DNA from: Acidimicrobiia bacterium
GTDB taxonomy: Bacteria; Actinomycetota; Acidimicrobiia; Spongiisociales; ZC4RG35
Direction of reading: 5' to 3'
Assembly: GCA_035292605.1 (NCBI GenBank)
Contig: DATDPT010000069.1
Location: 56,599-120,598, forward strand
DNA: 64,000 bases
Below, piece by piece: positions 37,974-63,964 of the stretch; within the stretch, counting starts at the first letter, position 1, and every line of letters begins with the position of its first letter. A model generated the notes under the pieces. It did not search any database and was not told the DNA's origin. It was given only the letters and a program-made list of their open reading frames with translations. The position numbers and the translations under genes are program-made.

Positions 37974-39210
37974 GTTCCCCGGAGAGGAACGCGCTCACGA
38001 CATCGCCGATCCTGGTGGGTGACGTCGACCCGAGCACCACGCCAAGTTGCTGGTGCATCCCGACGGCGACACTGGTCTCGGGAACCATGTCGGAAGGACC
38101 GACGACGAACGACCACACTTCGTTAGCGAGCCCGGAGAGAGCATCGAGCGCGTAACTTGACGACTGATGGAAGCCATACCTTCCGACGTATTGGCTGTTT
38201 GTTGACCACTTACATTCGAACAACAGGGCGCGGTGCCCCTTGTCAATGAGCATGATGTCGACACCGATCGCTCCGCCAACCCCCGCAATCCCACGGACAG
38301 CGTCGTAGTACGCAGCTCGTGGTAGCCCGTATGCGCCGCGCGAGGCTCCGGCTTCGAACCACAGGTCATAGCGAGTGCCGCTCGGTCCAATCGCTTCTAT
38401 CTGCGCGCCGGGTCGAGTGCCCGATAACGGACGTCGCCACGTCACAACGAAACGGTGGTTGCGGAGTGCTCGGATCACCATCCCGTAGGACCCCAGGTGA
38501 AACAGCCGCCAGCCGATATCGGGGTCGGGGGTGATGAGTTCAAATGCAATGAACTCCGAGTCTCGTTCCGCTCGAACAGCAAGCTCGGCAGCCGCACCAA
38601 CGGATGCCCACGGATACCCGGAGGTCTTGAGCGACAACAAGCTGAGGCGGTCGGGGCGTGTCGCATCGATATCGGCGCTCCAGGGAGCGAGCGCATCGTC
38701 TACCACATCCAGACGTGCGCGGATCCGGAAAGAGCCCGACGCCCATAGCGACTCGACGTTGTTGACCGCTGCGCGCATTTGCCCGGCCAGCCACGCGAGC
38801 GTTCCTATCGCGACTTCGTCCATCACCCTGCGGCGGGTTCTCAACCTGAATTCCCGCGGTGGCCATCCGGACCTGGACCTTCGATGGGTTTCACGCCAGT
38901 TGATCGATCCTGCAGGGACTCGTGCGACATTGGGGTCCGAGACACTTGACGACGGCAGATACTCCTCCCAGTCAGATGCGGTCCGAGGCCATGTCGCAGA
39001 TATCGGATCGATGATGCCCAGGAGCACTCGCAACGCTCGACGGTGAATGTCGGTCGCAGTCCAGTCGAGCGCGTCCGGAGCCGAAACGTATGCCAAGGAC
39101 TCATAGATCGAGCCTTCACCAGACCATCCGCGAAGGACCTCGTCGATGCCGACGCGAGGGATCGAAAGCGTCAGCCGAGGGTCTGACGTTGGATGACTGT
39201 CCACTCCCAT
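37957..39210 (-). CDS. McrC-like PD-(D/E)xK nuclease subunit
   Basis: IGVDIMLIDKGHRALLFECKW is a D...ExK nuclease core. Sits directly downstream of and overlapping the McrB-like gene. Confidence 0.55.
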   Translation of the reverse strand: MGVDSHPTSDPRLTLSIPRVGIDEVLRGWSGEGSIYESLAYVSAPDALDWTATDIHRRALRVLLGIIDPISATWPRTASDWEEYLPSSSVSDPNVARVPAGSINWRETHRRSRSGWPPREFRLRTRRRVMDEVAIGTLAWLAGQMRAAVNNVESLWASGSFRIRARLDVVDDALAPWSADIDATRPDRLSLLSLKTSGYPWASVGAAAELAVRAERDSEFIAFELITPDPDIGWRLFHLGSYGMVIRALRNHRFVVTWRRPLSGTRPGAQIEAIGPSGTRYDLWFEAGASRGAYGLPRAAYYDAVRGIAGVGGAIGVDIMLIDKGHRALLFECKWSTNSQYVGRYGFHQSSSYALDALSGLANEVWSFVVGPSDMVPETSVAVGMHQQLGVVLGSTSPTRIGDVVSAFLSGEPNDLR

Positions 39211-41751: not shown

Positions 41752-44700
41752 TCAGCGATGCAACATTGCTCCGTGCAGCACTGGACCCCTAAGGTCGATC
41801 CCACTGACATTCGTTAGATCGTAGGCGCTGACGGCGTCACGCCACTGGGCGGAGGCCACAAAGGCGGGGTCGCCAACATCGGCTGCCGGTCCCAGCTTGA
41901 TGCGAGCTTCTGCGTATCGGGCGACCGCTGACGACCACTGTTGACGGCGCAAGACGTCCATGGTCGGCGGAGGGCCAATGGCTTCAATGACTTCCTCAGG
42001 AGGGTGGATCTCGTAGGCGGCGACGCGTGCGTTGATACGGTGCTGCATTTCATCTGCGACAACCGCGTACCTGTGGAGAACACCAGCGTTCTGCTCCAGC
42101 CATGCTTCTCGGGTGACCACGTGTCGGTCTAGGTCGTCACGTCTTCCGACTAGCGCTCGGACCTGGGCGCGGGCACCGGACGTGCGAAGTCGTTCAGCGA
42201 TCTCGTTGGCTTCGTCGATAGCAGCTTCCACCGCGGTCAGCTCGTCGGTGACATCGGTCCCGATCGGACTCCGTCTGATGATGCCCTCAAGCTCGTCACG
42301 CCATTCGATGAGCTGTTGATCGGTGGCAGTCGTCACCGGGAGGCCCTGATCATGGGCAAGAGGTTCGATTACCGACTGCGAGAGCTGACGGGCGAGGGAG
42401 GCAACACGGTCCTCCGCGAGCGGATCGCCGTGGATGTAGGTGCATTCGCCGAGAGGGCCGGGCGCGTCGTTGATCCACAGATGGGTCTCTCCTCTGGCCC
42501 TGGAGAGGGCGGTGTAGCCGTGCTCCGCTCTCACTCCTGTGTCCGCATAGACATGCGTGCTCTGAAAGGTCTGTCCTTGGGAGGTATGGATGGTCTGGGC
42601 GTAGGCATGGTCGACGTTCCTGTCGAGGTAACGCTTTGGCAGTTCGATCACTTCGCCGTCGAGGTCTCTACGGAAGCTGACGCTGCCCGGGTCGGGGTGC
42701 ACGCTGAGCACGGTGCCAGTCTGGCCATTGCGTAGGTCGGCGTGTGCATACCAGTTGTCGCGCACCACTATTCGGTCACCGGCCTGGAACTCAATCCTCC
42801 AACGATTGACGATTGAGGGACCAGTTATCTCGGCAGCGTCCCGCATGCGGACCCGGGCCAGTTGGTTGAGCATCTGGACCTCGTCGCGACGAGAGGCGAG
42901 CATCCGCACGCCGTCGAGCCCATGATTCTGAACGTCGGTCCACCAGGCGTCGACCATCGCTGCCTTGGTCGCGTACTCATCGCGACCGAGGTGGAGCCGC
43001 CCAGCCTCGGCATATTCGTGGACGGCTTGTTCGATCTCTCCAGCGCGAAACCGATCGAGGGCGTGGCGGTCGAAGTCGAGGTGCTGTCGCTGGTTGACCC
43101 GCACCAGCTCATCGACAACCTGCTCACCTGAGGCGACGATCCGGTGGAACACTCCTCCCGAATCGACTGAGGGAAGCTGCTTCGGGTCGCCGACCAGCAC
43201 GAGTTTCCCGTGACAAGCCTCGACGTTTTCGACCAGCCATGCGAGGTCAGCAGTGGAGACCATGGAGGCCTCGTCCACCACGACCAGCGTCCCTGGGCGG
43301 AGCGGATCGGGGGATGCGTCGAGTTGATGCCGGAGCATGGCGATGGTTCCGGTCCATCGCTCGCCCAGATCTTCGCCCAGCTGGCGGGCAGCCGCCGCCG
43401 ACGTCGCTACTCCGATGACAGGGCACCCTGCGGCCGCGACAGCGTCGGCGTAGGCGCCGATTGAGTAGGTCTTGCCCGACCCGCCAGGTCCGACAACTGC
43501 CACTACTCGACCGTCGAGCTCTCCGAGATGTCGCACGGCTTCGGCCTGGCCCTCCACCAGTTCCCGAATGCGAATCGCCCGCTCTAGCGCTTCTCGGTCG
43601 GGTGCGAGCGGCGAGCTGACTTTGACCGAATCGAGCACTCGCTGTTCTCGTTCGAGGTGGAGGCGGGTGGTGTATCGGGCTTCACCAGGGAGCGCCCGGA
43701 ACCGCACCGTGCCGCCCTGCTGGAGCCAGCCAGGCCCCTGTCCTACTGCTATGTCCAACTCCTCGGTCGATAGAACAACACCTTCAGGGAGGACGAGCCC
43801 GGTCTCGGCGTGAGGAAGGATGGTGAGCACGTCCCCTGACTCTTGCGCGGCTCGGAGTAGCTCGCCGGTAGTGGCCAACAGCTCGACCTGGTTTGCTCCG
43901 TCGGGGAAGATTGACGAAACATGGGCGACCAGATCCCGTTCGGTGAACACCGCCTGCCGGTCCGACACCCACTCCACGAGACTCCGGGCCGCCGCCTTCA
44001 CTTGCTCCTCTTCAGGTCGGCGAGAGGGACGTGTCTCCCCCACCGCGGCCCTAACCACGGCTGCCACATCCTCGGGGGCGTCCATCGCTCGTCTCTGCCA
44101 GTGGGCCACCACGTCGGAAGTGATCCCGTAGTCCTTCATCTCCCGGGTCACCTCTGCCTCGCCTGTCGGATGCGACTTGGGCTGGCGGGTCTCCAGGGTG
44201 AAGGATTGCCACACACGCCGGTGCGCCTCCCCGCCCACCTCGGCCAGATATCGCTTCACCGCTTCGACGATCTCAGTACGGCGAGTGGAGAAATGACGGA
44301 CCAACTCAGGGGAGAACCCGGCGATGTCGGCGACACCGTTGACCACCGGCTGCCACGACACACCCAACCTCTGGGTAAGCACATCCCGCAGCACCGCCTG
44401 GTACACCGAGCCGCCCGCTTTGGCGTGGGCATAGGCCCGCTTAGCGTCTATCGCCCGCCAGCCTTCATCGGCCCACACCCGATTGATGACCACCACGTGG
44501 GTGTGGACTTGGGGATCGTTGGCCCGAGAGGTGAAATGGTCGAAGGCAGCGGCCACGTAACCTTCCGACTCCGCCGTGCGGGTGTTCACCTTCCACCTGC
44601 CTTCCGCGTCCCGGTGCTTAGTCGCCAGCCGCGAATGGGAACAGTGCTCCTCCATGTAGGACATAGCATCGGCTACCGCCGCCTGGTGAGCCGCCGTGAC

Positions 44701-45069
44701 CTCAACACGGACCCGCTCATCACCGAAGGCATACAGCAGCGACACCGACTTAGGAGCCGAGAAGGTGTGGTCGAAGGCAGCCACCTTTCCGTGGCTGGCA
44801 AACCTACGCACCATGGAGTCACCCCCCGGAGTCTGGTGACCCATCAGCTTGGTGAATACCTCCGAGTCCACCTCAGATCCGGACTCCAACCCGAGTCGTT
44901 CCATGCCGCCCCCCATCCACCGAGAGGGTGATTCGTGGGAGGCGTAGTAGTCCACCTGGGACGGCTTCCGCTCTCCCCGCAAGACCGGAACGTCCTCACC
45001 GACCGAGTGGCGGAGTTGTTGGGTGTAGTACTCCGCCTGGGAGGCCACCAGCTTGCCGATCGACTGCAT
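41752..45069 (-). CDS. traA: MobF-family conjugative relaxase/helicase (TrwC/TraA-like)
   Basis: N-terminal relaxase domain (start MQSIGKLVASQAEYYTQQ, HTHVVVINRV His motif) plus C-terminal RecD-like helicase (Walker A GPGGSGKTYS). Confidence 0.9.
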   Translation of the reverse strand: MQSIGKLVASQAEYYTQQLRHSVGEDVPVLRGERKPSQVDYYASHESPSRWMGGGMERLGLESGSEVDSEVFTKLMGHQTPGGDSMVRRFASHGKVAAFDHTFSAPKSVSLLYAFGDERVRVEVTAAHQAAVADAMSYMEEHCSHSRLATKHRDAEGRWKVNTRTAESEGYVAAAFDHFTSRANDPQVHTHVVVINRVWADEGWRAIDAKRAYAHAKAGGSVYQAVLRDVLTQRLGVSWQPVVNGVADIAGFSPELVRHFSTRRTEIVEAVKRYLAEVGGEAHRRVWQSFTLETRQPKSHPTGEAEVTREMKDYGITSDVVAHWQRRAMDAPEDVAAVVRAAVGETRPSRRPEEEQVKAAARSLVEWVSDRQAVFTERDLVAHVSSIFPDGANQVELLATTGELLRAAQESGDVLTILPHAETGLVLPEGVVLSTEELDIAVGQGPGWLQQGGTVRFRALPGEARYTTRLHLEREQRVLDSVKVSSPLAPDREALERAIRIRELVEGQAEAVRHLGELDGRVVAVVGPGGSGKTYSIGAYADAVAAAGCPVIGVATSAAAARQLGEDLGERWTGTIAMLRHQLDASPDPLRPGTLVVVDEASMVSTADLAWLVENVEACHGKLVLVGDPKQLPSVDSGGVFHRIVASGEQVVDELVRVNQRQHLDFDRHALDRFRAGEIEQAVHEYAEAGRLHLGRDEYATKAAMVDAWWTDVQNHGLDGVRMLASRRDEVQMLNQLARVRMRDAAEITGPSIVNRWRIEFQAGDRIVVRDNWYAHADLRNGQTGTVLSVHPDPGSVSFRRDLDGEVIELPKRYLDRNVDHAYAQTIHTSQGQTFQSTHVYADTGVRAEHGYTALSRARGETHLWINDAPGPLGECTYIHGDPLAEDRVASLARQLSQSVIEPLAHDQGLPVTTATDQQLIEWRDELEGIIRRSPIGTDVTDELTAVEAAIDEANEIAERLRTSGARAQVRALVGRRDDLDRHVVTREAWLEQNAGVLHRYAVVADEMQHRINARVAAYEIHPPEEVIEAIGPPPTMDVLRRQQWSSAVARYAEARIKLGPAADVGDPAFVASAQWRDAVSAYDLTNVSGIDLRGPVLHGAMLHR

Positions 45070-45163
45070 GCTCTCAACCCCCCGCAACCTGTGGTTGCAA
45101 CTGTGTACGGTCAAACCGGTCGGTGGGCGAGAGGCGGGTGACTGTCATGGACGGCGACCGGGG

Positions 45164-45577
45164 TCAGAGACGGGCTAGGACGGCGAGCAAGGGGCGCTGG
45201 CAGGCTCCGCAGCGGCAGGCTCGGGGAGTGGGATGGGTCCAGCCATCGGGCCAATACGGGAGGCTGGTCGCGCATGTGGTGCAAAGGGCATAGCCGCCGA
45301 TGAGGGGTATCAGCGTGTACTCGTCGTCTACCGGGATCTGGGTGTTGCAGAGGTCGCAGATCCACAACGTGTTGTCATCTGGAAGGCTGGAGATCATGAC
45401 CACCCCGAGCCGCTCCAGGTCGGCACGGAGTCCAGCTTCGGCGGCGACCCGCCGCCGGTAGACCTCACGGTGGGCAGCGGGGCGGACCACGAAGCGGAGC
45501 TCATCACGGCACCGGCGACACAGCCCGACGTCGGTCAGGGGCTCGTGGGTGTCGCAGCTCGGGCAGTCTCCGATCAT
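45164..45577 (-). CDS. Zinc-ribbon (multi-CxxC) protein
   Basis: CPSC, CRRC, CDLC, CTTC and CRCGAC pairs in 137 aa. Confidence 0.45.
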   Translation of the reverse strand: MIGDCPSCDTHEPLTDVGLCRRCRDELRFVVRPAAHREVYRRRVAAEAGLRADLERLGVVMISSLPDDNTLWICDLCNTQIPVDDEYTLIPLIGGYALCTTCATSLPYWPDGWTHPTPRACRCGACQRPLLAVLARL

Positions 45578-46581
45578 GCCGACACCGCTTTAAAGCAGAG
45601 CAGATGGTCATCCCAGTCGGGTGTGGCTTGTGCGAGGGTGTTGAGATCGGTCCCGTCCGGCAAGTCGAGGATTCGAGCGTCGAGTCCTCGAGCAGCGAGG
45701 AGTTGTTGGAGACGGTCGGCGGCGACTCGGCCGGGATCGTCGCCGTCGAAGCCGATCAGGATCTGGCGGTGGCCCGTGTGGTCGGCGATGGTCTGGGCGA
45801 TGCACATGCTGGGGTAGGCGGCACCAAGAACAGCGACAGCGGGGAGACCGGCGGTGGCTGCTGTCAGAGCGTCGAGGACACCCTCACAAACGATGAGCAG
45901 ATCAGGCTGGCGGAGGGACGGGATGTGAGGCCAGGCGAGACCTGGGTTGGTTCCCAGCCGCCGTGTCGGATTCCCGTACTTTGTCCCGGCCCCGGAGTCG
46001 AGGTAGCGGGCCTGGACGTAGCTGAGACCGCCGGTCGGGTCCAGGGCCGGAAGCACGGCGGCCACTCCTGACCGTGGGAGCCCGAACCGTCTGCGGAGCA
46101 GGTTCGGTCCCGGGTCGGCGCCCACCCTGTTGGCGTTCAGGACTGCGGGATCGAGCCGCCGTTCTTCGATGAGCCATTCGAGGACCTGCAGGCCGGTCCG
46201 GGTCCTCAGGATGCGCTGGCAGGCGTCGACGTAGTCCTCTACCGAAGGATGCAGTGGAACGGGCTCGTTGACGATCGTGTCGTGGGGGAGGGGATCGAGG
46301 TGGGCCACCGCGGCGAGTTGGACGATGGCCACGCCGACGGTCACACCATGGGCCGCGACCAGGGCGTCGATGGCGGTACCGCCTCGACCACAGGACCAGC
46401 ACCTCCAGCGGCCGATCCCGTCGACCACTCGCATGCTCACCGACGGATGGCGATCCTCGTGGTCTGGATCCAGGCAACGCCACCGGCGCCGCTGGTGGCG
46501 GTCGGACGAAGCGGTGAGACTGTCGAGGAGACCGGCCAGGTCGACCCTGCGGCGCAGGTCGATCCGGTCGACGTGGCTCAT
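45574..46581 (-). CDS. DNA primase (CHC2 zinc finger plus TOPRIM)
   Basis: CLDPDHEDRHPSVSM...WRCWSCGRGGTAIDAL (CHC2) and LIVCEGVLDALTA...IGFDGDDPGR (TOPRIM). Confidence 0.8.
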   Translation of the reverse strand: MSHVDRIDLRRRVDLAGLLDSLTASSDRHQRRRWRCLDPDHEDRHPSVSMRVVDGIGRWRCWSCGRGGTAIDALVAAHGVTVGVAIVQLAAVAHLDPLPHDTIVNEPVPLHPSVEDYVDACQRILRTRTGLQVLEWLIEERRLDPAVLNANRVGADPGPNLLRRRFGLPRSGVAAVLPALDPTGGLSYVQARYLDSGAGTKYGNPTRRLGTNPGLAWPHIPSLRQPDLLIVCEGVLDALTAATAGLPAVAVLGAAYPSMCIAQTIADHTGHRQILIGFDGDDPGRVAADRLQQLLAARGLDARILDLPDGTDLNTLAQATPDWDDHLLCFKAVSA

Positions 46582-46928
46582 TGCTCAGACCGGTGGATCT
46601 CAGCCGTGGCGAAGCGGATCGAGGCGGCCAGCTCGTCGGCGTCGACCACGTAGCGGCGGCGCTTCTCTCCCGTGTCTGTAATCCATTCGTCCTGACGCAT
46701 CCGACCAACGGCCACCACCCGGTCCCCTTGGTGCAGAGACGCGGCGGCATGCTCGGCCAGCTTCCGCCAGACCACTACCGAGTAGTAGCTGGTGCTCTGT
46801 AGGCACTGGCCGGACGAATCCTGGTAGTTGCGGTTCTCGGCGATGCGCAGGTCGGCCACCGCTACCCCGCCCGGTGTCTCGCGGAGCTCGGGGTCACCGC
46901 ACAGGTTGCCGACGATGGTCGCATTCAT
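46578..46928 (-). CDS. ssb: Single-stranded DNA-binding protein
   Basis: MNATIVGNLCGDPELRETPGGVAVADLRIAENR...SYYSVVVWRKLAEHAA, an OB-fold SSB pattern. Confidence 0.8.
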   Translation of the reverse strand: MNATIVGNLCGDPELRETPGGVAVADLRIAENRNYQDSSGQCLQSTSYYSVVVWRKLAEHAAASLHQGDRVVAVGRMRQDEWITDTGEKRRRYVVDADELAASIRFATAEIHRSEQ

Positions 46929-47863
46929 CTCCGCTCCTTCCGATCGGTTCCGCTCGGCTCACGATCAGACACCATCATCATATCACTACCTAGCGACATA
47001 ATGGAAGGAGGTAGCTCGATCCGATTGGTTCTGTCGGCTAACGGCTCTGAACGCTGCCAACGGTCGAGGATCTGTCGTGAGAAGGTGACGATCCGCTCCC
47101 CCGTGGTGAGCAGGATCCGGTTCGGGTCGTCTGTGGTGTCAGCCCAGCGGGCGACATAGGCGACCGAGTAGTCGGAGCTGTCGAGACCGGCAGCCGCGCA
47201 GACCACGTAGGCCACCGACTCCGCCTCCACCTCCACCCGTCCCCGACAGTCGATGTGCCCGTCGCCTGCGTGCATCAGGACGTGGGCCAGCTCGTGGATG
47301 GTGGTCTTGGTCAACTGGGCCCCGTCGAGGTCGGCCTCGACTATCACCTGCCGACTCGCTGGTCGGGTAACACCGTTGGGGCCTCGGAGCGGCGCCAGAC
47401 TGAACTGGTATCCGGCGTCTTCGATCATCGAGATCCCGGTCTCGAGCACGGCGGTGTCTCCGTCGCCGGTGAGGAGTCGAGGACCGACGTCCGGTAGCCG
47501 CTCGCCGTCGGTCTGGGAGAGGTCGAAGACGGTCACCACCCGGAAGCCGACCAGCACCCGCTCTTTCTCCTCCGTGTCGGCTCGATCGTCTTTGACACGA
47601 CGGGTAACCGGAGCGAGGATCCGGTAGCCGGTCTCTCCCCTTCGCACATGGCGATCGAGGTGTTGCCAGGTCCGGTACCCGGCTGGTCTTGTGACCGTGG
47701 TGCCTCTCTCCTCGGCTTGGGACCAGAGGAGAAGCCAGTTGCCCAGCGAGTAGTCGTGGAAGCGGGCTGCGGTCACCATCGCCTGCAGCCACTCCTCCGA
47801 GGTTCGCAGTCGGGCGACCTGGTCGATGAGCTGTCGGTGAAGCTGGTTCGCTGTGACGCTCAT
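46925..47863 (-). CDS. ardC: ArdC-like antirestriction protein (ssDNA-binding N-domain plus zincin metalloprotease)
   Basis: Internal start MSVTANQ...; FHDYSLGNWLLL (ArdC-N) and HExxH (IHELAHVLMH). Confidence 0.8.
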   Translation of the reverse strand: MSVTANQLHRQLIDQVARLRTSEEWLQAMVTAARFHDYSLGNWLLLWSQAEERGTTVTRPAGYRTWQHLDRHVRRGETGYRILAPVTRRVKDDRADTEEKERVLVGFRVVTVFDLSQTDGERLPDVGPRLLTGDGDTAVLETGISMIEDAGYQFSLAPLRGPNGVTRPASRQVIVEADLDGAQLTKTTIHELAHVLMHAGDGHIDCRGRVEVEAESVAYVVCAAAGLDSSDYSVAYVARWADTTDDPNRILLTTGERIVTFSRQILDRWQRSEPLADRTNRIELPPSIMSLGSDMMMVSDREPSGTDRKERR

Positions 47864-48027
47864 CGCCACCTCACCGGCTCGCACCCGAAACAGAACAGGA
47901 ACGACACGCCGTCGGAGAAGGTCATCCGATAACGGGCCCGCCGATGCCGACACGACTCGCAGCGCCGAAGCGGCCAAACCGCCTGGACCCGCTGGTACCT
48001 GGCGTCGTGCAACGGGCACCGCCACAT
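47860..48027 (-). CDS. Small zinc-ribbon protein
   Basis: 55-aa C-terminal part of a long ORF (MWRCPLH...CESC...CFGC) with an ATGA overlap with the ardC start. Weak. Confidence 0.3.
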   Translation of the reverse strand: MWRCPLHDARYQRVQAVWPLRRCESCRHRRARYRMTFSDGVSFLFCFGCEPVRWR

Positions 48028-48110
48028 CTCGATCACCCGGTACCGCCGACCCAGCTCGTGGATGCAGCCACACGGTGCGATCCCGATTCGAAGCTGCGGG
48101 GTGAGAAGAG

Positions 48111-48810: not shown

Positions 48811-49092
48811 TCAGGACCCCCAACGCCGCCGGCGGCTGCGGCCTTGATCTCCCTCGCCGGGTTCAACGGTCTGGGTGAGTTCGGGCTCCCGGGATGACAC
48901 CGTCTTGGTGGCATGTAGTTCCTCGAGTGCGGCCCTGGGGACGCGCAGTTGGCGACCCAACTCGACCACCGGGAGCCCGCTGCGCCCAGCTGTCTCGCGC
49001 CACTCGCGGGCTAAGGCGTACGCCGATGTACGGCCTATCCGAAGGAGCGCAGCGGCCTCCTCGACTGTCAGAAACTCGGGCAGATCAGACAC
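48811..49092 (-). CDS. xis: Excisionase-family HTH protein
   Basis: LTVEEAAALLRIGRTSAYALAREW, an HTH divergent from the integrase. Confidence 0.6.
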   Translation of the reverse strand: MSDLPEFLTVEEAAALLRIGRTSAYALAREWRETAGRSGLPVVELGRQLRVPRAALEELHATKTVSSREPELTQTVEPGEGDQGRSRRRRWGS

Positions 49093-49232: not shown

Positions 49233-50474
49233 ATGAGCAGAAGAGAGGGAGGGCTCTTTCGACGGTGCCACACATGCGGACAGCGGGTCCCATCTCCATT
49301 GAAGACCTGCGGCTACGTCGATCAGGCCGGTTCGGTGTGTGGAGGTGAGGTGGGCTGGGGCTTTGTGTTCGACGTTGCACTTCCTGGTGCGAAGCGTCGG
49401 AAGAGAGTCACTCGTTCCGGGTTCTCCACGAAGAAGCAAGCCGTCGCAGCGATGCGCGAGGTGCAGGAGGCCGACGCCAAAGGGAGCCTCGTGGAGCCCA
49501 CGAGGCTGACGGTCGGTGAGTACCTGGCCGAGTGGCTGGCAGCTACTCGAAGCCGCGTAGGTGACGATCTCAGTGCTACCGGATGGCGTGACTACGAGAT
49601 TCACGTCAGACGGCACATCACACGCAGGATTGAGGAGGTGCCACTTCAGGCTCTCGACCGCAACCACGTGAAGGCTCTTTATGCGTGGGTTCAGGAGGGG
49701 AACTCGTCTCGGGGAGGGCGCCGGCCATCACCCAAGACAGTCCACAACATCCATCTCACGCTCCACAGAGCCCTCGAAGACGCGGTCGCTGACGGGTTGA
49801 TCGCCCGCAACCCAGCGACGAGGGCTCGCAAGGCGCCGAAAGCAGGTCGGGAAATGCTCACCTGGGATGAGGACCAGCTGCGCAGCTTCTTCCACGCCAG
49901 CGCCGAGGATCGCCTCTTCCCCTTATGGCAGATGACAGCCATGTCCGGGATGCGTCGGGGCGAGATCCTGGGGCTGCGGTGGGACGACGTCGACTTCAAG
50001 TCCTCGACGGTCACCGTCAACCGCCAGTGGAGGCGGGGTGAAAAGGGGTTGGTCCTGGCGCCACCAAAGACCGAGCGGAGCCGCCGTACCATCGACCTCG
50101 ACACTGAGACCGTCACAGTCCTCAAGAAATGGCGAACGGCGCAGCTCGAGGAGCAGATGGCCTACGACGGCGAGTGGCAAGACAACGGGTTCATCTTCAC
50201 CCGCAAGGATGGAAGACGCCACGACGTCGACGTTGTGTCTCAGCACTTCGATCGACTCGTGGCCCGGGCCGGGGTACCGCCTGTCAGGTTCCACGACATG
50301 AGGCATACCCACGCAACTCTGCTTCTCCTAGCCGGTGTCCCAGCCCATGTCGTCTCAATGCGTCTTGGGCATCGAAGCGTGGCGTTCACCTTGCAGCAGT
50401 ATGCGCACGTACTCCCCCAACAGCAGGCGGATGCGATCAAGTTGTTGGCGATACGCCTCTTCGGTGAAACGTAG
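49233..50474 (+). CDS. int: Tyrosine-type integrase with N-terminal zinc-ribbon-like segment
   Basis: Catalytic blocks R...HDMRHTHATLLL...LGHRS...Y. N-terminal CHTCGQ...CGYVDQAGSVCGG. Confidence 0.9.
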   Translation: MSRREGGLFRRCHTCGQRVPSPLKTCGYVDQAGSVCGGEVGWGFVFDVALPGAKRRKRVTRSGFSTKKQAVAAMREVQEADAKGSLVEPTRLTVGEYLAEWLAATRSRVGDDLSATGWRDYEIHVRRHITRRIEEVPLQALDRNHVKALYAWVQEGNSSRGGRRPSPKTVHNIHLTLHRALEDAVADGLIARNPATRARKAPKAGREMLTWDEDQLRSFFHASAEDRLFPLWQMTAMSGMRRGEILGLRWDDVDFKSSTVTVNRQWRRGEKGLVLAPPKTERSRRTIDLDTETVTVLKKWRTAQLEEQMAYDGEWQDNGFIFTRKDGRRHDVDVVSQHFDRLVARAGVPPVRFHDMRHTHATLLLLAGVPAHVVSMRLGHRSVAFTLQQYAHVLPQQQADAIKLLAIRLFGET

Positions 50475-57067: not shown

Positions 57068-59146
57068 TTAGGTACGCGGCCGAGATGTAACGAGGCCGCG
57101 GTCGTGGTAGTCAAGAATCGCTCGCTCGGCCGCTGAGCGGACTTCGTCTTCGGGTGCGTTTGATACGTCGATCATCAGGTCGATCGCCTCGGCCACAGGA
57201 ATCGGTCCCTGTGTGAGTGCTTCAAAGAGAGCTGCCGTTGAGAGTGTGAGCTCCAAGATGTTGGTCCGGAACGACCTTGCGTCCCTCTCGATGAGCACGT
57301 ACCACGGTCTGACACTCGTGAGATGAGGATGTCGAGAGAGACGAAGAAATCGGTGGGGGGCTGTGAGACCGAGAAGTCCAGCAGGAGCGAAATCCGCCGC
57401 GTCCGAGTCAGGTGTGGGTTCGGAGTAGAGGACCTCGGATCGGGTCCCAACGAGGAGAACCTGGTCTCGGATCAGACCGGCCTGCTCTCCGTCTGGACCG
57501 TTTGAATCCAGGCACGAAAGCACAAGTGCCTTGAACCGACCAAAATCGGACGGAAGCCCGGCATCATCGAGGACCCATTGCTCAAGAAAACGTGACCGGC
57601 TGGAGTCTCCAAGTTCACTGTACTGGGCGAATAACACTTCGAAAGGACGACTCAGAAAGTGGTACTTTTTTGTGAGGATGCTTCGACAGTATCGCTCAAG
57701 TGCCTCCTCATCCATCGATAGCTCGATCAGCGAACGACCTTCGTGTTGCGTGAGTTGCTCACGCGCAACCTCGGGAATCTCACCATTCCTGCGCATCGTT
57801 AATCGATACTCCCTGTCGGAATAAAGGCGAACCAATGCTCTATTGAAGCCGTCGATGGCCATTCTTCGGGTCTCCTTCTCTTGATAGTCAACGTGCACAG
57901 CCCCTATCAGGCGGTCGATCCAGCGCTTGCCAGTGTCATCGCTTGGCAGTGAGTACACGCTCCGACTCTTCTCGGCGATGGCTCCGCCAATGTCCGGATC
58001 CAATGCTGCGACGAGAGCTTCTGCGAGTTGATCGATCTCGCGCGGGTCGCTTACTAGAAGCACATTCTCTCTATCGATCAGAGGTTCGGTGGTTCGCTGG
58101 TATTCGGCGACATCCTTGGTGAGGATCACGCATTTTCCGGCACTCATGGCTTCACGGGGGATCTGGGGTCGATGAATCGTGATGGGAAACCTGTTCTCGA
58201 GAAAGGCAACAACCGAGGCGCGCGCCAGTATCTCCGGGACTCTCCAAGGTGGGAGGTAGGGAACAGCGATGAACCGTTCGGTGAGATTCCTGTTCTCAAC
58301 GTCACGAAGCAACCCTTCAAACCACGGCCCGCTCTGGCCGGTCACGAACAAGAGGCAGAAGTCAAGGCCTTGGTTCTGAAGGCGCTCAGCGGCCGCAATG
58401 AGCTCAGTGGTGCCCTTGAACTCCCCAAGCTTTCCGTAGACGAGAACCACCGGAGACGAGGTGGCCGTTGGCCCGATATACCGATAGTCGGACGAGCCAT
58501 CCAGGTCGGTCGCGAGGTCACGTAAGTCCAAAGGCATTGTCGCCTTGAACAGGGAGCGAGGCGCGAACAAGGGCCGCCCCACAATCATGCTTGCTGGGTC
58601 GGCTCCTAACTCCAAGACGGTTTGGGCCGCCGTCGGACTAGTAAGTATGCGATCCGCCTGCGCCAGTGCGGCCCCGTAAACGGAGCGCCTCGCAATCGAA
58701 GTAGAAAGGCGGGTGATGTCGCTTCCGGCGTGCATCAGATAAAGGGGGACCCCGGTTGCGGTGGCCGCAACCTGGGCAGCGACCCCAAACGGTTCCAGGT
58801 AGATGCCGATGACCGCTCGACAGTGCCCTTCATTGATGACTCGGACTGCCTCGCCCGAGAGTCGAGTGACCAAAGCGTTGGTCGTTGGGATCGAGTAGGA
58901 ACCTGACGATGACTCGAGATCATGGACCTTGACCCGACTCAGAGAGGGAAATTGATCAGACGCGTAAAGCCACTCGTTCGGCCGATGGAACTGGAGCTGA
59001 CTTGCTGATGGAACACGACCCGTCCCCACGACGTGCACATCATTGCCGGCTTCTGCTAGGCGATGTGTGAGCCATAGAGCTTGGGCGCTTGTCCCGCCTA
59101 TCAGGGGAGGGAACTTGCCGATGATGCATAGCGCAGTCGAGTCCAT
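57068..59146 (-). CDS. GT4-family glycosyltransferase with ~280-aa C-terminal extension
   Basis: N-terminal CIIGKFPPLIGGTSAQALWLTHRLAEAGNDVHVV and a GT-B C-terminal half (REAMSAGKCVILT); lower GC. Confidence 0.7.
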   Translation of the reverse strand: MDSTALCIIGKFPPLIGGTSAQALWLTHRLAEAGNDVHVVGTGRVPSASQLQFHRPNEWLYASDQFPSLSRVKVHDLESSSGSYSIPTTNALVTRLSGEAVRVINEGHCRAVIGIYLEPFGVAAQVAATATGVPLYLMHAGSDITRLSTSIARRSVYGAALAQADRILTSPTAAQTVLELGADPASMIVGRPLFAPRSLFKATMPLDLRDLATDLDGSSDYRYIGPTATSSPVVLVYGKLGEFKGTTELIAAAERLQNQGLDFCLLFVTGQSGPWFEGLLRDVENRNLTERFIAVPYLPPWRVPEILARASVVAFLENRFPITIHRPQIPREAMSAGKCVILTKDVAEYQRTTEPLIDRENVLLVSDPREIDQLAEALVAALDPDIGGAIAEKSRSVYSLPSDDTGKRWIDRLIGAVHVDYQEKETRRMAIDGFNRALVRLYSDREYRLTMRRNGEIPEVAREQLTQHEGRSLIELSMDEEALERYCRSILTKKYHFLSRPFEVLFAQYSELGDSSRSRFLEQWVLDDAGLPSDFGRFKALVLSCLDSNGPDGEQAGLIRDQVLLVGTRSEVLYSEPTPDSDAADFAPAGLLGLTAPHRFLRLSRHPHLTSVRPWYVLIERDARSFRTNILELTLSTAALFEALTQGPIPVAEAIDLMIDVSNAPEDEVRSAAERAILDYHDRGLVTSRPRT

Positions 59147-59164
59147 GCTCAGGTGCCAGTTGCC

Positions 59165-59998
59165 CTAACTGGGGAGGTCTCTTGAGATCGACTTGAGGCG
59201 GCCGACTTCGACAACTAGATCGGCGAGCATCTCAAACTTGGCGTCACGTTCCAGGATGATGATGCTCGGCCGCTGGACATTCAAGGCGTCCTCGTAAACG
59301 GAGAAGATCTCCTCCTGAATCGGAGCATCATGTGAATCAATAAGGAAACTGTCATGCCCGACCGAATAGCCGGCCACGTGGAATTGAGTCCATGGGACGC
59401 CTGCAATGTCGCCGAAGAGGTCATCCAAGTCACCAGCTATTCCGTTTGTCGCATTCAGCCACACGTTCGTTACGTCGACCAGGAGAGTTGCTCCAGTCCG
59501 TCGATGAAGCTCAGCGAGGAATTCCCCCCAACCGTACGTTGCCCCTGGGAGGCGTACCATTTCAGTGATCGTCTCGAGAACCAGAGGCAATCCGAGTTCC
59601 TCCCTCGCGATGTCAGCATTGTTGGCGATGACATCCAGGCCGCCTTGAGTGCGCCAAACGGGTGAGAGGTGCCAGATATCGAATCCTCCGGCGCGAGAGA
59701 TTGCCACATGTTCGCTGAAGTACGGCGGCTCGATAAGGTCTAGTAACCGCTTGAGATCGCCAAACATAGGCATCTCGCGAGGGTCTGATGACCCCAGAGA
59801 CATACTGACCCCATGTGGTATTAGTTCGAAGGACTCTCGAAGGGCTTCCAGTTCTCCGATGCGATCATTGGTTAATGGAAGGAATTGTTCGACAAGGATC
59901 TCCAGGACGTCAAGCTCGCTTGACAGCTCATGAAACTGGTCCGCCAAGGGCCGACGGTATCCGACTCCGAACTTCGTTTCGACAATGGACACGCTCAC
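59165..59998 (-). CDS. DUF692/MNIO-family enzyme (MbnB/TglH-like)
   Basis: Conserved DUF692 blocks HGVSMSLGS, EHVAISRAGGFD, LVLETITE, LLVDVTNVWLN, FHVAGYS, FLIDSHD. GTG start overlapping (GTGA) the AsnB-like stop. Confidence 0.75.
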   Translation of the reverse strand: MSVSIVETKFGVGYRRPLADQFHELSSELDVLEILVEQFLPLTNDRIGELEALRESFELIPHGVSMSLGSSDPREMPMFGDLKRLLDLIEPPYFSEHVAISRAGGFDIWHLSPVWRTQGGLDVIANNADIAREELGLPLVLETITEMVRLPGATYGWGEFLAELHRRTGATLLVDVTNVWLNATNGIAGDLDDLFGDIAGVPWTQFHVAGYSVGHDSFLIDSHDAPIQEEIFSVYEDALNVQRPSIIILERDAKFEMLADLVVEVGRLKSISRDLPS

Positions 59999-61638
59999 TT
60001 GGCCAGCTCCAGCCAGAACTCGGCGTACCACGTCTTCAGCACGGGGGGAAAGGGAATACGAGAGAACCACTCAGGCATGGCAGAGGCAATCTCAGACGCG
60101 GCGGCCTCAGTCGGCGGCTGTCGGAATCCCGCGTCGAACGCATTCGGAAGGCCAGATTTGGGCCGCGTCATGAATCTCTCCGGGAACTCATGCATAGATC
60201 TCAGCAATTGCCTCAGTAGGGGTTTCTGCTCCCAGGATTGAGTGTGAAGTCCGCGTTCAACCAAGCTGTCAGCGAAGGCGACGTTCTCCGTCGCCAGATA
60301 CGGCACACGGACCTCGAATCCGTGAGCCATTGACGCGTGGTCAAAGGGCAAGAGATGGGCATCGATAAGTTGGTGAGTCCTGTCAGTATTGGCGAACATC
60401 GAGTGTTGATACTGAGCACCGGCCCCGACGTTCTCAATGGCAGTTAGAACGGTATTGATGAGATCAGTGCTGTGTTCGACTTGGGAGTGTCTTCGAACGA
60501 TCCGTTCGATCCGCGGGCTCGGGTCTGCGTGCCACGGATAGCCCAAGTAGAGTTCGTCTGCGCCTTCTCCGCAGATCACCACCTTCGATTCTGGGAATTC
60601 CTTGCGAAGGCGAGCGAACATCCAGTACATCGTATAGGCGGAACTACCCCCCATCGAGAGAGCTGCTTTGCCGGGGCTCTCGAACAGGCCATCAAGTTCG
60701 GGTTGAACAGTCAGCAGCCGAATGCCGGCTTCGCGAGCTACATAGCGCGACCATTCCGCGTCCGGCGACCCAGGTGGGCCGACATAGACCCCCACCATTC
60801 TGTCTTTGAACCCCAGTCGAGACGCGAGTAGTGCAAGTAGTGATGAGTCAATCCCACCGGAAAGGAGTAGAAGAACTTCGGCTCCGGTGCCGTGAGTGAT
60901 GGTGTCGGTGACAGCTCTATCCAGAATGGAGAGTTGCTCTGCAACGATCGCTTCATCCGATCCGAGCGATCGAGTCCCGATTCGGCCGAGTTGTTCCCAC
61001 GTCTCCGAGATCGATCTAGGTCCATCCACCTCGATCTGGACAACGCTCGACGGTGGCACCTGTTCGATCCCTTCGATGACGCTGTTGCGGTAGTCCGAGA
61101 AGCCAAGGACGAAACGATTGACGAAGAAATCTCGGTTGAGGGCGATCCCATCCTCGGCCTGGACGCCGGCGACATGTGATGAGAGTGTTACCGCCATGCC
61201 GTCCTGAGCACGGTAAAGGAACAAAGGCTTGATCCCCTCCCTGTCTCGAGCTGCGACCACTCGCTTGTTCCTTTTGTCAACGATGACGATCGCGAACATT
61301 CCGTTCAGATCGTCGAAGAGGCGAATGCCGCGATATCGGTATGCCTCGCGGAGGAAGTCGTACTCGTTTCGAATTCCCCTTAATCCGTATGCGCTGGAGA
61401 GCGCCCGGTAGTTCCAGATCTCTCCGTTGAGTAGGGCGATGATCTCCTGGCCATCGTTCGATGATCCGATGCTGGCTTGCGGAGACTCGATAGCAAGGCG
61501 CACAAAGCCGGCGGCGTACCAAGCGTCGGCTTCCAACCAGTGCTCATCAGGGCCACGATCTTTGATTCGGAAGAGTCCTGTCTGGATACTTCCCCGCTCG
61601 AGTTCAGGAGCGTTGACGGTAACGACGATCCCACACAA
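59995..61638 (-). CDS. Asparagine-synthetase-like glutamine amidotransferase
   Basis: N-terminal MCGIVV (Ntn Cys) and PP-loop LLSGGIDSS; 547 aa. Confidence 0.85.
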   Translation of the reverse strand: MCGIVVTVNAPELERGSIQTGLFRIKDRGPDEHWLEADAWYAAGFVRLAIESPQASIGSSNDGQEIIALLNGEIWNYRALSSAYGLRGIRNEYDFLREAYRYRGIRLFDDLNGMFAIVIVDKRNKRVVAARDREGIKPLFLYRAQDGMAVTLSSHVAGVQAEDGIALNRDFFVNRFVLGFSDYRNSVIEGIEQVPPSSVVQIEVDGPRSISETWEQLGRIGTRSLGSDEAIVAEQLSILDRAVTDTITHGTGAEVLLLLSGGIDSSLLALLASRLGFKDRMVGVYVGPPGSPDAEWSRYVAREAGIRLLTVQPELDGLFESPGKAALSMGGSSAYTMYWMFARLRKEFPESKVVICGEGADELYLGYPWHADPSPRIERIVRRHSQVEHSTDLINTVLTAIENVGAGAQYQHSMFANTDRTHQLIDAHLLPFDHASMAHGFEVRVPYLATENVAFADSLVERGLHTQSWEQKPLLRQLLRSMHEFPERFMTRPKSGLPNAFDAGFRQPPTEAAASEIASAMPEWFSRIPFPPVLKTWYAEFWLELAK

Positions 61639-61732
61639 CAGAGAACGGCTCCTTCCCCAGCTCAGGCATGGCGGTCAGCGGCCAAGATGCTCTGCATATT
61701 GTGTGTGTCGATTATCAGTTCTGGAGCGCACA

Positions 61733-62254
61733 ATGATCACTAGGAAGGGCATACTAGATGGGGCCGCGTGGAGCGACCTGCCGTTGACGCTCGCCGTCGT
61801 ACTGTTGAGTCTCCGCGGTTACTCCACATTAACGAGCAAGTCAGTCCTTGGCAGTAGCGAGTACGGCATGTTCGCGAGAGGCCATCGTGAAATCGTACGA
61901 GGGTTTCCCATGGTCGAACTCCTTCAATCAGATGGGAGCACGACGGAGCTTCTTCACCCTAGATCTCTACTACCGATCGAAGCGGGTCATGCTCTGAACT
62001 GCTTTGCGGCAGTCTTTTTCGGCCACGACAGCGCAGCAAAGGCCCGTCTCGCAGACGTCGTCGTATCGCGACTCAACAAGGGGCACTGGCCGGCTCGCGG
62101 AGAACGGTGGCCTTCGCCGTCGCGTATCCCCGGGGTGCACTACATCGGGATGCGGGTCATCTCAGCAACGATCGATCTCAGGCCGCTTGCTCTGGGCTCG
62201 AGTGAGGTAGTGACGCCGAGCACGGTGGTTTTCGACTGGAGGTCAGATGGGTAG
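61733..62254 (+). CDS. Hypothetical protein
   Basis: Internal start MITRKG... (172 aa). 8-nt overlap with the downstream gene. Confidence 0.4.
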   Translation: MITRKGILDGAAWSDLPLTLAVVLLSLRGYSTLTSKSVLGSSEYGMFARGHREIVRGFPMVELLQSDGSTTELLHPRSLLPIEAGHALNCFAAVFFGHDSAAKARLADVVVSRLNKGHWPARGERWPSPSRIPGVHYIGMRVISATIDLRPLALGSSEVVTPSTVVFDWRSDG

Positions 62255-63098
62255 GTCACTCGACGAGAACCGGCCGATCGAAGACCGATTGTTACTCACA
62301 AAGTTAACGTGTGGTGCCGCTCTCATCAGGGTCGTCTGGGATTCGCCGAATCCTAAGTTTGTCAGCGACGTTGCTGAAGCGGTTGGTGAGTCTCGTGACT
62401 CTCCCACTCGGCTGACCACGGCATGGCAGCTGTATGCAATGCGAGCCGCGATCGCTCCGTGCGTTGTCTATTGGTGCGCGGGGAAGGGCAAGTGGGCGGC
62501 CGTGTCGGGCCTCATGTCAGTTGCAGTCTCCGCTCGCACGATGGCTCTCGTTAGAGGCTCGATCCCGGGGAGGTTGAGCACACGGCGACACCTGCATGAA
62601 GTCTCTTCGGTCATCGCGGTGTCGGACTTCTTGATTGCTGTCGGGCCATCGCAGGAGGCATCAGCACTCGCTCAACGAACTCGAGGTCGGGCGCTTTCGG
62701 GAGCTCAATTGATGGTGGCCGCCGTATACACACAAGCAGGTATCGCCAAACTGAAAAATGGCTGGTCGGGTTGGATCTCTCAAGGATCTTCACCGCGAAA
62801 CGCTCTTGCGATGTCGGGCACAGCGTTCGGTCGATTGCTAAGCAAAGAAGACCTGAGTGCTGCCATTGCTCGACCTGTCGTTCTGCTGGAACTTCTGTCA
62901 CTACCACTGGTTCTCGTGGGGGACACCGGTCGGCGGATTGTCGGCTTGTCTAATGTGAGTATTCACATTGGTAGCAACTACGCGATGCGCATCTCCTACT
63001 GGCACCTCGCGTGGCTAACGTCGGTCCTCTTGCTTCTCCCAGATTGCCTCGTGAAGAGACTGGCTTCCGCGTTGAGTTGGATCGGAGGGAGACACTGA
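62247..63098 (+). CDS. Polytopic membrane protein
   Basis: 283 aa with several hydrophobic helices. Confidence 0.45.
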   Translation: MGRSLDENRPIEDRLLLTKLTCGAALIRVVWDSPNPKFVSDVAEAVGESRDSPTRLTTAWQLYAMRAAIAPCVVYWCAGKGKWAAVSGLMSVAVSARTMALVRGSIPGRLSTRRHLHEVSSVIAVSDFLIAVGPSQEASALAQRTRGRALSGAQLMVAAVYTQAGIAKLKNGWSGWISQGSSPRNALAMSGTAFGRLLSKEDLSAAIARPVVLLELLSLPLVLVGDTGRRIVGLSNVSIHIGSNYAMRISYWHLAWLTSVLLLLPDCLVKRLASALSWIGGRH

Positions 63099-63147
63099 AT
63101 ACGGCGCGCTCCCGGGTGCGACACCAGTCGGTCGCCAGGGTGATGAG

Positions 63148-63306
63148 CTAGGTGCCGTGACTCCCGGTGCAACCGCTGCAACCCTCGCTGGTGCATCCAT
63201 CTGATGTGGCACATGAGTCGCCACTCTCAGCGGAATCGGCGTACGGGTCCACAACCTCCTTGATTGCGAACAGAGTCGCATGCTCCTGAGTGGTTGGGAG
63301 AGTCAT
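63148..63306 (-). CDS. Small precursor-peptide-like ORF (52 aa) with a Cys/Ser/Thr/Gly-rich C-terminal core
   Basis: Start ATG preceded by AAGGAGGA at 6-nt spacing. Product MTLPTTQEHATLFAIKEVVDPYADSAESGDSCATSDGCTSEGCSGCTGSHGT. The N-terminal extension in the ORF track has no RBS. Confidence 0.5.
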   Translation of the reverse strand: MTLPTTQEHATLFAIKEVVDPYADSAESGDSCATSDGCTSEGCSGCTGSHGT

Positions 63307-63598
63307 AACCCGTCCTCCTTGCCATAGGGACAACAAGTCTATGCCGGGAGTGAGCCGGACGTCAACGCATCCGAACGATTTTCTCGGGAGAGCTGCAGCC
63401 AAGATGGCCCATTGTGAGCGGATCACTAGGACGAGGCTGCTATCTGCCCCGGGGACCTGGTGCAGGCGACCGTCGTGGTCGCGTGAGTCGACCTCATTCA
63501 TTCTTGTCGAGGCTGGGCGCACCAAGGCCGCCAAAGCGCCCAGCCGAACAAAGTCACCAGCGACGCCTTCAAATCTAGTATGACGTCTTACGCATGGC

Positions 63599-63964
63599 TC
63601 ACTTGAATCGGTAGCGGTTCCACATGGCCGTTTCCTCCCGGGCGGTTTGGGCCATTTCGTCGAGGATCTTGCAAAGGGATTCTGACCCCTGCTCGAGACT
63701 CAAATGTCTCTCAGCTTGGGCGGTGAACCCGCCTGCGTCGATCAGAGAAGTCCCTACGGCCATGTAGGAGGTTCCGTTTGAGCGCCTGACCTCGATGGTG
63801 AGCTGCTCGCCGTTCCACTCCAAGGCATAGATTCCCTCATGGTCAACGACATAGGGGATGGGATGCGAATTCAGAATCTGTTCCACGACTCGGTGGGCAT
63901 GTGCTGTGAGCTCGGAGAGCCGGACACTGTCATCGGCGATCTCGTTGACGGCTTGCTCGACCAT
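63599..63964 (-). CDS. Hypothetical protein, possibly continuing beyond the window edge
   Basis: Open upstream to position 64000 with no stop. Confidence 0.35.
   Translation of the reverse strand: MVEQAVNEIADDSVRLSELTAHAHRVVEQILNSHPIPYVVDHEGIYALEWNGEQLTIEVRRSNGTSYMAVGTSLIDAGGFTAQAERHLSLEQGSESLCKILDEMAQTAREETAMWNRYRFK

Follow-up and report, generated by a model that had tools for sequence, protein, structure and literature searches.

The MNIO (DUF692) enzymes number about 14,000, of which a handful have been characterized, and each newly studied clade has so far given new peptide chemistry. In the BufB-BufC and HvfB-HvfC systems, cysteine is converted to thiooxazole (or oxazolone/thioamide) groups, giving copper-binding, ribosomally made peptides with post-translational modifications (RiPPs), and in the 3-thiaglutamate pathway of Pseudomonas syringae, TglH removes the beta-carbon from a C-terminal Cys that is added by a peptide aminoacyl-tRNA ligase (PEARL). 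In the nitrilobacillin (pes) cluster of Peribacillus simplex, PesC uses glutamine and ATP to amidate a C-terminal carboxylate and then dehydrates the amide to a nitrile; the precursors of this cluster terminate in R(V/T)DN, and its MNIO, which is without the third-iron HxD motif, hydroxylates Asp (PMC13060819). The stretch of DNA analyzed here (64,000 nt of contig DATDPT010000069.1 from an Acidimicrobiia bacterium; hereafter the window, on which coordinates are given) carries an operon on its minus strand that encodes an MNIO, an AsnB-like amidotransferase, and a family 4 glycosyltransferase (GT4) with a long C-terminal extension, together with a separate gene for a Cys-rich peptide (Table 1). 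We consider it probable that this locus is a new variant of the MNIO-dependent RiPP pathway, combining Cys oxidation with probable peptide glycosylation and carboxylate amidation. A first-pass annotation had described an uncharacterized MNIO-dependent RiPP-type cluster fitting no described pathway, and the intact MNIO, the fold of its partner, and the precursors found across a family of related loci bear this out.

The genes listed in that annotation all lie at the positions it gave, and several of its gene-level observations were recovered: an MNIO with the hallmark DUF692 blocks (here the PF05114 match and nine retained iron-ligand positions), its GTGA coupling to the AsnB-like gene, a GT4 protein with an extra domain (Glycos_transf_1 followed by a C-terminal extension of ~264 aa), and a small open reading frame (ORF) with four Cys in its final 21 residues. 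The MNIO scores 193 bits against PF05114 (gathering score 25), which places it within the MNIO/DUF692 superfamily. Residues H62, H97, E142, D175, N178, H207, D221, H223, and E250 are invariant in an alignment of its 10 closest relatives and coincide, in further alignments, with the conserved metal-ligand positions of the solved MbnB, TglH, and 3bww; the MbnB iron ligands are H54, H90, E133, D163, N166, H192, D208, H210, and E239. The full His/Asp/Glu/Asn set is thus present, and the objection that the iron-binding set might be lacking falls away. The enzyme is a tri-iron-type MNIO with intact ligands. It is not an orthologue of any characterized MNIO: BufB, the best-scoring NCBIfam model, gives 167.5 bits against a cutoff of 310, followed by HvfB (127 bits, cutoff 360), MbnB (58 bits, cutoff 325), and ApyH (55 bits, cutoff 400).

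The AsnB-like gene ends in AAG TGA, and the GTG start of the MNIO gene overlaps that stop codon (GTGA, 59995-59998). Its product matches Pfam Asn_synthase (5e-32) and GATase_7 (7e-18), and its Met-Cys N-terminus (Cys2 being the nucleophile), NGEI glutaminase motif, SGGIDS pyrophosphatase loop (SGGxDS), and GEGADEL motif are invariant in four family members. It reaches 170.8 bits against NCBIfam asn_synth_AEB (cutoff 267) and 55 bits against the lasso cyclase model (cutoff 525); the nearest solved structures are ASNS, a TsnB9-type hydroxyamidotransferase, and beta-lactam synthetase. These features indicate an intact glutamine-dependent adenylating amidotransferase, translationally coupled to the MNIO. 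The glycosyltransferase domain matches PF00534 (Glycos_transf_1) at 42.4 bits (threshold 26.4; E = 7e-11), with weak Glyco_trans_4 matches besides, and belongs to the GT4 family; four family members all keep GKxPPxxGGT, GKxGxxKG, and FLE...PRE unchanged, and the catalytic roles of such Glu, Lys, and Gly motifs are those assigned by general GT4 knowledge. A phmmer search of this domain against PDB sequences matched no solved structure. In the NCBI annotation, the fusion protein has a later start and a length of 460 aa (P0020), and one JGI contig has a homologous glycosyltransferase split into 216 and 356 aa.

The absence of a DUF2063 or RiPP recognition element (RRE) partner, which the first-pass annotation had reported, holds for sequence signatures but fails at the level of fold, the candidate partner being the C-terminal domain of the GT4 protein. 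Pfam NGO1945_C matches this domain only below threshold (E = 0.0024 with the full protein; 1.5e-4 for the best of its relatives). Profile searches against PDB sequences returned nothing even at E = 10, word-indexed searches with the single sequence and with a five-sequence profile returned only the domain itself and one relative, and tblastn matched none of 72,556 plasmids. Across 1.84 billion cluster representatives, an exhaustive HMMER scan identified the domain in 13 proteins, one of them a repeat artefact; the 12 real carriers are mostly glycosyltransferase fusions of 628-693 aa, with two stand-alone proteins (257 and 261 aa). AlphaFold2, run on the domain with an 11-sequence alignment, gave a model (pLDDT 88.5, pTM 0.82) of eight helices followed by a winged-helix module of a beta-sheet and three helices; an earlier model from a two-sequence alignment (pLDDT 43) was left out of the fold search. 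Against PDB, Foldseek placed 3dee (NGO1945) first, with an E-value of 2.5e-5, and then TglI in the TglHI holoenzyme (8.4e-5 and 5.1e-4), the next best match standing at 0.06; the matches include the lasso leader-binding protein TbiB1, over the winged helix only. NGO1945 is the archetype of proteins that combine DUF2063 with an RRE. The domain profile also aligns end to end with the stand-alone partner of Nonomuraea sp. SBT364 (245 columns, probability 88.6%, E = 2.6e-6), a protein that is encoded directly 3' of its MNIO and that matches the NCBIfam ApyI and HvfC partner models.

On this predicted model, which is confident and corroborated by profile homology, the gene next to the MNIO carries a C-terminal domain of NGO1945/TglI fold, and an MNIO partner appears to exist, fused to the GT4 enzyme, as a DUF2063-like helical domain with an RRE-like winged helix. 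Partners related to NGO1945 (3dee) and TglI (8hi7) without the DUF2063 Pfam signature have been designated PME-type 2, and occur with precursors that have no Sec signal (Antoine et al. 2025; PMC12452194), as the domain does here. Because the DUF2063 Pfam signature is lacking, the predicted domain would be of type 2 rather than type 1; it has the modeled features of a full-length PME-type 2 partner. Calls of "no partner protein" that rest on Pfam signatures can therefore be wrong.

The 52-aa peptide consists of a leader of about 30 aa, MTLPTTQEHATLFAIKEVVDPYADSAESGD, which contains FxIxEV, and a 22-aa core, SCATSDGCTSEGCSGCTGSHGT, which is rich in Cys, Ser, Thr, and Gly, has four Cys, and ends in ...CTGSHGT. 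It has no signal-like segment and matches nothing in NCBIfam or Pfam. The leader motif FxIxEV...ESGxxC and the Cys-rich core are shared with small upstream ORFs in at least seven other loci, and a small ORF with a Cys-rich end lies directly upstream of the operon in every related locus with readable DNA (L003, L007, L004-6, L018, L021, L022, and L011). The C-terminal part of the window peptide, ...TLFAIKEVVDPYADSAESGDSCATSDGCTSEGCSGCTGSHGT, resembles in leader motif and core style those of the family precursors: ...ILDLIELGGVPVATADAACGSCSSGGSCGGGGSCGGCGSCGGSAHN in L003, ...LAVVEIPAITSTSDAACGSCSGGGSCGGGGSCGGCGSCGGSV in L007, ...ELFRITEVTTVPGAESGAACSISLESGAACSIGLEPGASC... in L004-6, ...RFAVTELVAPARSEVGAACSV... 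in L018, and ...PFLITEVTARSTVESGAACAQGPDLGASCALHAETGASCAITAEVGAACAIG... in L021. That of L022 is very acidic, with 60 aa and three Cys (...PTCFTD...PTCCDPGG...). Nonomuraea sp. SBT364 (L011) has two precursors, with C-terminal parts ...LEFELEQLATRFAAAEPEVSCAGCSSCKA (first) and ...LEFELEQLESKIVMAQPQVSCSGCGSCSGCAHSGCSGCAH (second); the two end in ...EPEVSCAGCSSCKA and ...QPQVSCSGCGSCSGCAHSGCSGCAH.

In a six-frame translation of the window, the family motif pattern occurs once, at the 52-aa ORF, compared with 0 to 0.1 matches in shuffled sequence; since the window sequence had a part in defining the pattern, the match is supportive and not independent. No other candidate occurs in L001, a 21-kb stretch of the window's own contig. 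The region has three promoter-like matches where 2.3 are expected, which makes the promoter weak evidence. In the contigs of the closest relative (P0002, MNIO 77% identical), the layout is similar, with a small ORF on the same strand, a reverse gene, and then AsnB. The JGI contigs 3300043331 and 3300056388, whose MNIO is 77% identical, have ORFs of 45 and 53 aa and a reverse gene of 199 aa. A pair of 269 and 50 aa on that contig resembles the 261-aa and 69-aa neighbors of the window precursor.

Across the related loci, the conserved core is a precursor, an MNIO, and a glycosyltransferase-partner fusion, with the MNIO and glycosyltransferase genes usually overlapping by 1-4 nt. This pair is retained while the accessory genes vary: the window, L003, L007, L011, and the P0002 contigs encode an AsnB-like enzyme, in place of which L004 has a Mur-type ligase and a second GT4; L003 adds an amidohydrolase, and L022 a TauD-type dioxygenase. 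The family is very rare, with eight MNIOs at least 43% identical in a word-indexed search of a 5.8-billion-protein collection. The locus of Nonomuraea sp. SBT364 (NZ_LAVL01000059, 1380-11133) encodes a glycosyltransferase-PqqD fusion, two Cys-rich precursors, an MNIO (34% identical), a partner as a separate protein, AsnB, and two ABC exporters. Its glycosyltransferase carries an RRE of its own, of PqqD type (24.4 bits against a Pfam cutoff of 23.4), which argues that this glycosyltransferase lineage acts on leader-bearing peptides. As a cultured actinomycete with a fuller cluster, Nonomuraea sp. SBT364 offers a practical route to the compound.

Some features of individual loci may be recorded here. 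The subfamily of L004, L005, L006, L018, and L021 (MNIOs 45-53% identical) always lies beside iron-sulfur genes (NifU, Rieske, SufBD), and its precursors contain repeated GA(A/S)C(A/S)xxx(E/D) units. L022 (448-4238) has an MNIO 39% identical and a glycosyltransferase fusion of 708 aa. L019 and L020 have MNIOs 34-38% identical with other Cys/Gly-rich substrates, in L019 (2410-4244) a TIGR04222 membrane protein ending in ...GGGCSSGGGCGGGCGGGCGG and in L020 a small ORF ending in ...GGSCGGCGCGCCGCW.

We propose the following pathway. The winged helix of the partner domain, whose fold is predicted, would recognize the precursor leader, while the helical domain would dock the tri-iron MNIO, as in TglHI and MbnBC. 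The MNIO would then oxidize Cys residues of the core, and the order of family proximity (BufB > HvfB >> MbnB) makes thiooxazole or oxazolone/thioamide heterocycles the likeliest products. The GT4 enzyme would probably glycosylate Ser, Thr, or Cys of the core, and its covalent fusion to the partner suggests that the same leader-binding module presents the peptide to it. The AsnB-like enzyme would use glutamine and ATP to amidate a carboxylate. Asparagine-synthetase-like enzymes amidate the C-termini of RiPPs (TsrC, ScdTA), and PesC does so beside an MNIO (PMC13060819); because of this, and because the L003 and L007 cores are without Asp or Glu, the peptide C-terminus is the likeliest site. The product is likely to be a metal-binding (copper-type) or antimicrobial peptide.

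Other explanations can be offered for these genes. The locus might be a RiPP cluster in which the peptide backbone is not the target of both the GT4 and the AsnB-like enzyme, the glycosyltransferase adding a uronic-acid sugar whose carboxylate is amidated by AsnB or extended by the Mur ligase, or serving mainly as a scaffold for the partner domain. Amidation of glycan uronic acids by AsnB-like enzymes is known (WbpS-type), and Mur ligases act on sugar-linked carboxylates; a sugar carboxylate would fit both the replacement of AsnB by a Mur-type ligase and a second GT4 in L004, both enzyme types being carboxylate-activating, and the lack of Asp and Glu in the L003 and L007 cores. We nevertheless regard this as unlikely, as it is established that asparagine-synthetase-like enzymes amidate the C-termini of RiPPs (PMC13060819), a route that calls for no further assumption, and the invariance of the glycosyltransferase motifs (GG, GKxGxxKG, and two Glu, E317 and E332) speaks against a domain that is scaffold only. 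It is improbable that the 52-aa ORF is not the substrate, or that the cluster in the window lacks parts, does not function, and rides on a mobile island as passive cargo. The two opposite-strand genes between the ORF and the operon, which occur in no other family locus compared as DNA, would suit such a reading, as would the lack of any exact match to the 52-aa product among called genes and of a recognizable protease or exporter. Yet the ORF has a strong ribosome-binding site at ideal spacing and a promoter-like site, its leader motif and Cys-rich core fit the family precursors, it is the only such ORF in 64 kb, the three enzyme genes are intact with conserved catalytic residues, and the closest relative is similarly arranged.

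Very little credence, finally, attaches to a cluster for exopolysaccharide (EPS), O-antigen, or another cell-envelope glycan in which the DUF692 protein has a non-peptide role. The AsnB-like protein and the glycosyltransferase do show sub-threshold similarity to EPS-type models (TIGR03108 amidotransferases and EPS GT4 enzymes, respectively), and distant relatives of the glycosyltransferase (24-27% identical) lie beside AsnB without an MNIO in L014-L016. Those distant enzymes, however, are of ordinary length (380-478 aa) and without the partner domain, whereas here the glycosyltransferase is fused to an MNIO-partner/RRE fold and Cys-rich small ORFs are conserved. The flanking ORFs include no recognizable priming transferase, flippase or polymerase, or chain-length or export genes; the neighbors are the integrase, TmtA, proteins without a family match, and the tRNA. 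Synteny with EPS or O-antigen loci had been named at first pass as what might overturn the RiPP interpretation, but the relatives are operons of compact form that place a Cys-rich small ORF directly before (AsnB)-MNIO-glycosyltransferase, and that refutation fails. We rejected the EPS reading, the distant loci with glycosyltransferase and AsnB having no MNIO, partner domain, or peptide.

The pathway proposed above, of Cys oxidation, glycosylation, and amidation, has points against it of its own. Every chemical step in it is inferred. The MNIO scores so far under every characterized equivalog cutoff that its reaction type is not confidently transferable, and the glycosyltransferase domain is too divergent in sequence to align with any solved glycosyltransferase. 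The carboxylate target of AsnB could belong to a sugar rather than to the peptide. Within the window cluster, no protease or transporter is recognizable. The 52-aa ORF stands 1.5 kb from the operon instead of next to it, beyond two opposite-strand genes, and gene callers annotate in its place a longer ORF (117/128 aa) within which the promoter match lies. We favor the 52-aa product over the longer ORF because both the ribosome-binding site and the promoter-like site fall within the latter.

Table 1. Features of the locus and its surroundings, in window coordinates unless stated otherwise
Feature	Position	Strand	Basis or remark
AsnB-like glutamine-dependent amidotransferase, 547 aa, TTG start	59995..61638	-	Pfam Asn_synthase and GATase_7
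MNIO (DUF692) enzyme, 277 aa, GTG start	59165..59998	-	PF05114, E = 7.4e-57
GT4-partner fusion protein, 692 aa	57068..59146	-	Begins 18 nt 3' of the MNIO gene
GT4-type (GT-B) domain, residues 1-428 of the fusion	57863..59146	-	Glycos_transf_1 at residues 229-382
Predicted MNIO partner domain, residues 429-692 of the fusion, and stop codon	57068..57862	-	DUF2063-like helical domain and RRE-like winged helix
Putative precursor peptide gene, 52 aa	63148..63306	-	Sequence read; motif and Cys-rich core
Ribosome-binding site AAGGAGG, 7 nt 5' of the 52-aa ORF ATG	63314..63320	-	Read directly
Sigma-70-like promoter match TTGACG-18 nt-TAGACT, ~30 nt 5' of the 52-aa ORF	63336..63365	-	Weak
Longer ORF called in place of the 52-aa ORF, 117/128 aa	63148-63534	-	Gene callers
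173-aa protein, divergent from the operon; cluster membership uncertain	61733..62254	+	No Pfam, NCBIfam, or PADLOC match
283-aa hydrophobic protein, overlapping the 173-aa gene by 8 nt; cluster membership uncertain	62247..63098	+	Possibly HTTM-like
197-aa protein, C-terminal 121 aa in window	63599-63964	-	
The 197-aa, 261-aa, and 69-aa proteins	L001 4684-6400		
tRNA-Met, ~1.8 kb past the window end	65791-65867 (window-equivalent); L001 4132-4208		
TmtA-like giant protein, 1778/1806 aa	51136-56472	+	Between the integrase and the cluster
Tyrosine integrase	49233-50474		
Xis-like helix-turn-helix ORF	~48815-49083	Opposite to the integrase	
ArdC-N	46925-48073		
Toprim primase	45574-46581		
TrwC relaxase	41752-45114		
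AAA_5 ATPase	39171-40796		
DNA methylase	36756-37973		
ISL3 transposase	33063-34472		
MacB/FtsX permease	31009-32244		

Two membrane proteins had been called at first pass. The 283-aa protein qualifies in part: one of its segments is strongly hydrophobic and several are moderately so, and it matches Pfam HTTM below threshold (E = 0.041, 13.9 bits). In the 173-aa protein, only an N-terminal segment is hydrophobic, and that moderately. Neither has a homologue in the other family loci compared as DNA. Their overlapping genes recall the SdpA/SdpB type of peptide-maturation pair, and they could form an SdpAB-like maturation or export pair, which we offer only as a lead. Proteins of 197, 261, and 69 aa are encoded between the precursor gene and the tRNA-Met; like the 173-aa and 283-aa proteins, they matched nothing above threshold in Pfam, NCBIfam, or PADLOC.

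The GC content is 0.67-0.70 at 48.0-49.0 kb and 0.53-0.61 over 57-64 kb. The GC drop on which the first-pass annotation had based horizontal acquisition is real, but it sets in at ~48.8-49.0 kb, beside the integrase gene, and not at 57 kb. The integrase, the flanking tRNA-Met, and the neighboring conjugation and defense genes speak for acquisition itself. From the integrase, the tRNA-Met, and the relaxase, primase, ArdC, methylase, and transposase genes, the cluster is seen to be cargo of an integrative and probably mobilizable element. Neither the 3' end of the tRNA-Met nor the 13-mers shared between the tRNA-side edge and window positions 1-58000 (four isolated matches) gave an att-like repeat, and the island boundary on the integrase side is therefore undefined. 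The giant protein has a sacsin-like HATPase at its N-terminus and NOV_C at its C-terminus and matches the PADLOC model of TmtA, of the Tiamat anti-phage system, from end to end (1473 bits), so that the island carries a Tiamat defense gene and a RiPP cluster side by side. A bolder proposal, which we advance tentatively, is that the locus founds a new RiPP class: a glycosylated, amidated peptide with several Cys-derived heterocycles, in which one GT4-fused partner serves both an iron oxidase and a glycosyltransferase. Given its place on a mobile island beside the Tiamat gene, the product could then be a transferable trait of metal-stress or chemical defense.

Among described systems, those of bufferin and HvfB have the closest MNIO models, the same iron ligands, an evident Cys target, and a partner of NGO1945-type fold. 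They differ in a precursor with a Sec signal and the DUF2282/EGKCG signature, a partner with the DUF2063 signature, and DoxX, whereas here the scores lie far below the cutoffs (310 and 360), the partner is fused to GT4, an AsnB-like enzyme is present, and there is no DoxX. A bufferin was rejected on the BufB score (167.5 against 310) and on a precursor without Sec signal, DUF2282, Buf_6-12Cys, or EGKCG signature; a methanobactin was rejected on the MbnB score (58 against 325) and the lack of an MbnC partner. Compared with TglHI, the Cys residues here are internal and multiple, no PEARL-type gene is present, and the partner is fused, where TglI is a separate protein. A lasso cyclase was rejected on its score (55 against 525 bits), the intact glutaminase Cys2, and the lack of a transglutaminase-like protease; to our knowledge, lasso cyclases lack a functional glutaminase nucleophile.

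The claim made at first pass that the locus matches no described pathway stands, but the pairing of an MNIO with an asparagine-synthetase-like enzyme now has a precedent in pes, with a different precursor and different MNIO chemistry (PMC13060819, a 2026 preprint). The pes cluster, the only such described RiPP cluster found, combines MNIO, partner, and asparagine-synthetase-like enzyme, as here. It has no glycosyltransferase, and here the cores are Cys-rich, the D221/H223 motif is retained, and PesX, an HExxH enzyme, and an M16 peptidase are all missing. A nitrilotide was rejected, as the precursor ends in ...CTGSHGT and not in R(V/T)DN, and the locus has no second TIM-barrel or PesX-like gene. 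The TIGR04222-associated MNIO clusters of Actinomycetota (PMC12452194), to which type L019 (MNIO 34% identical) belongs, resemble this locus in Cys/Gly/Ser-rich tails, PME-type 2 partners, and actinobacterial hosts; their substrate, however, is the tail of a polytopic membrane protein, in contrast to a free 52-aa peptide with a leader, and no GT4 or AsnB has been reported in them (PMC12452194). The locus would work as the known RiPP systems of MNIO and partner do; on the defining features tested, it falls outside the bufferin, methanobactin, TglHI, nitrilotide, TIGR04222-type, and lasso groups.

The literature searched, with subscription journals largely outside it, holds no description of a glycosyltransferase-containing MNIO cluster or of a glycosyltransferase-partner fusion, and a 2025 survey of MNIO clusters mentions neither "glycosyl" nor "asparagine" (PMC12452194). 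Three features are new relative to that literature: a glycosyltransferase belongs to the conserved core of an MNIO pathway; an enzyme that activates carboxylates, AsnB-like or Mur-ligase-like, recurs; and a partner/RRE module is joined to a second tailoring enzyme, implying that two catalysts share a single recognition domain. RRE-fused tailoring enzymes follow the same logic of a leader-binding domain joined to a tailoring enzyme, and the RRE-glycosyltransferase fusions listed by RRE-Finder are PF00535 (GT2) enzymes (PMC12710340). Compared with those fusions, the protein described here would join a GT4 enzyme to a complete two-domain MNIO partner, so that a single module would serve two enzymes.

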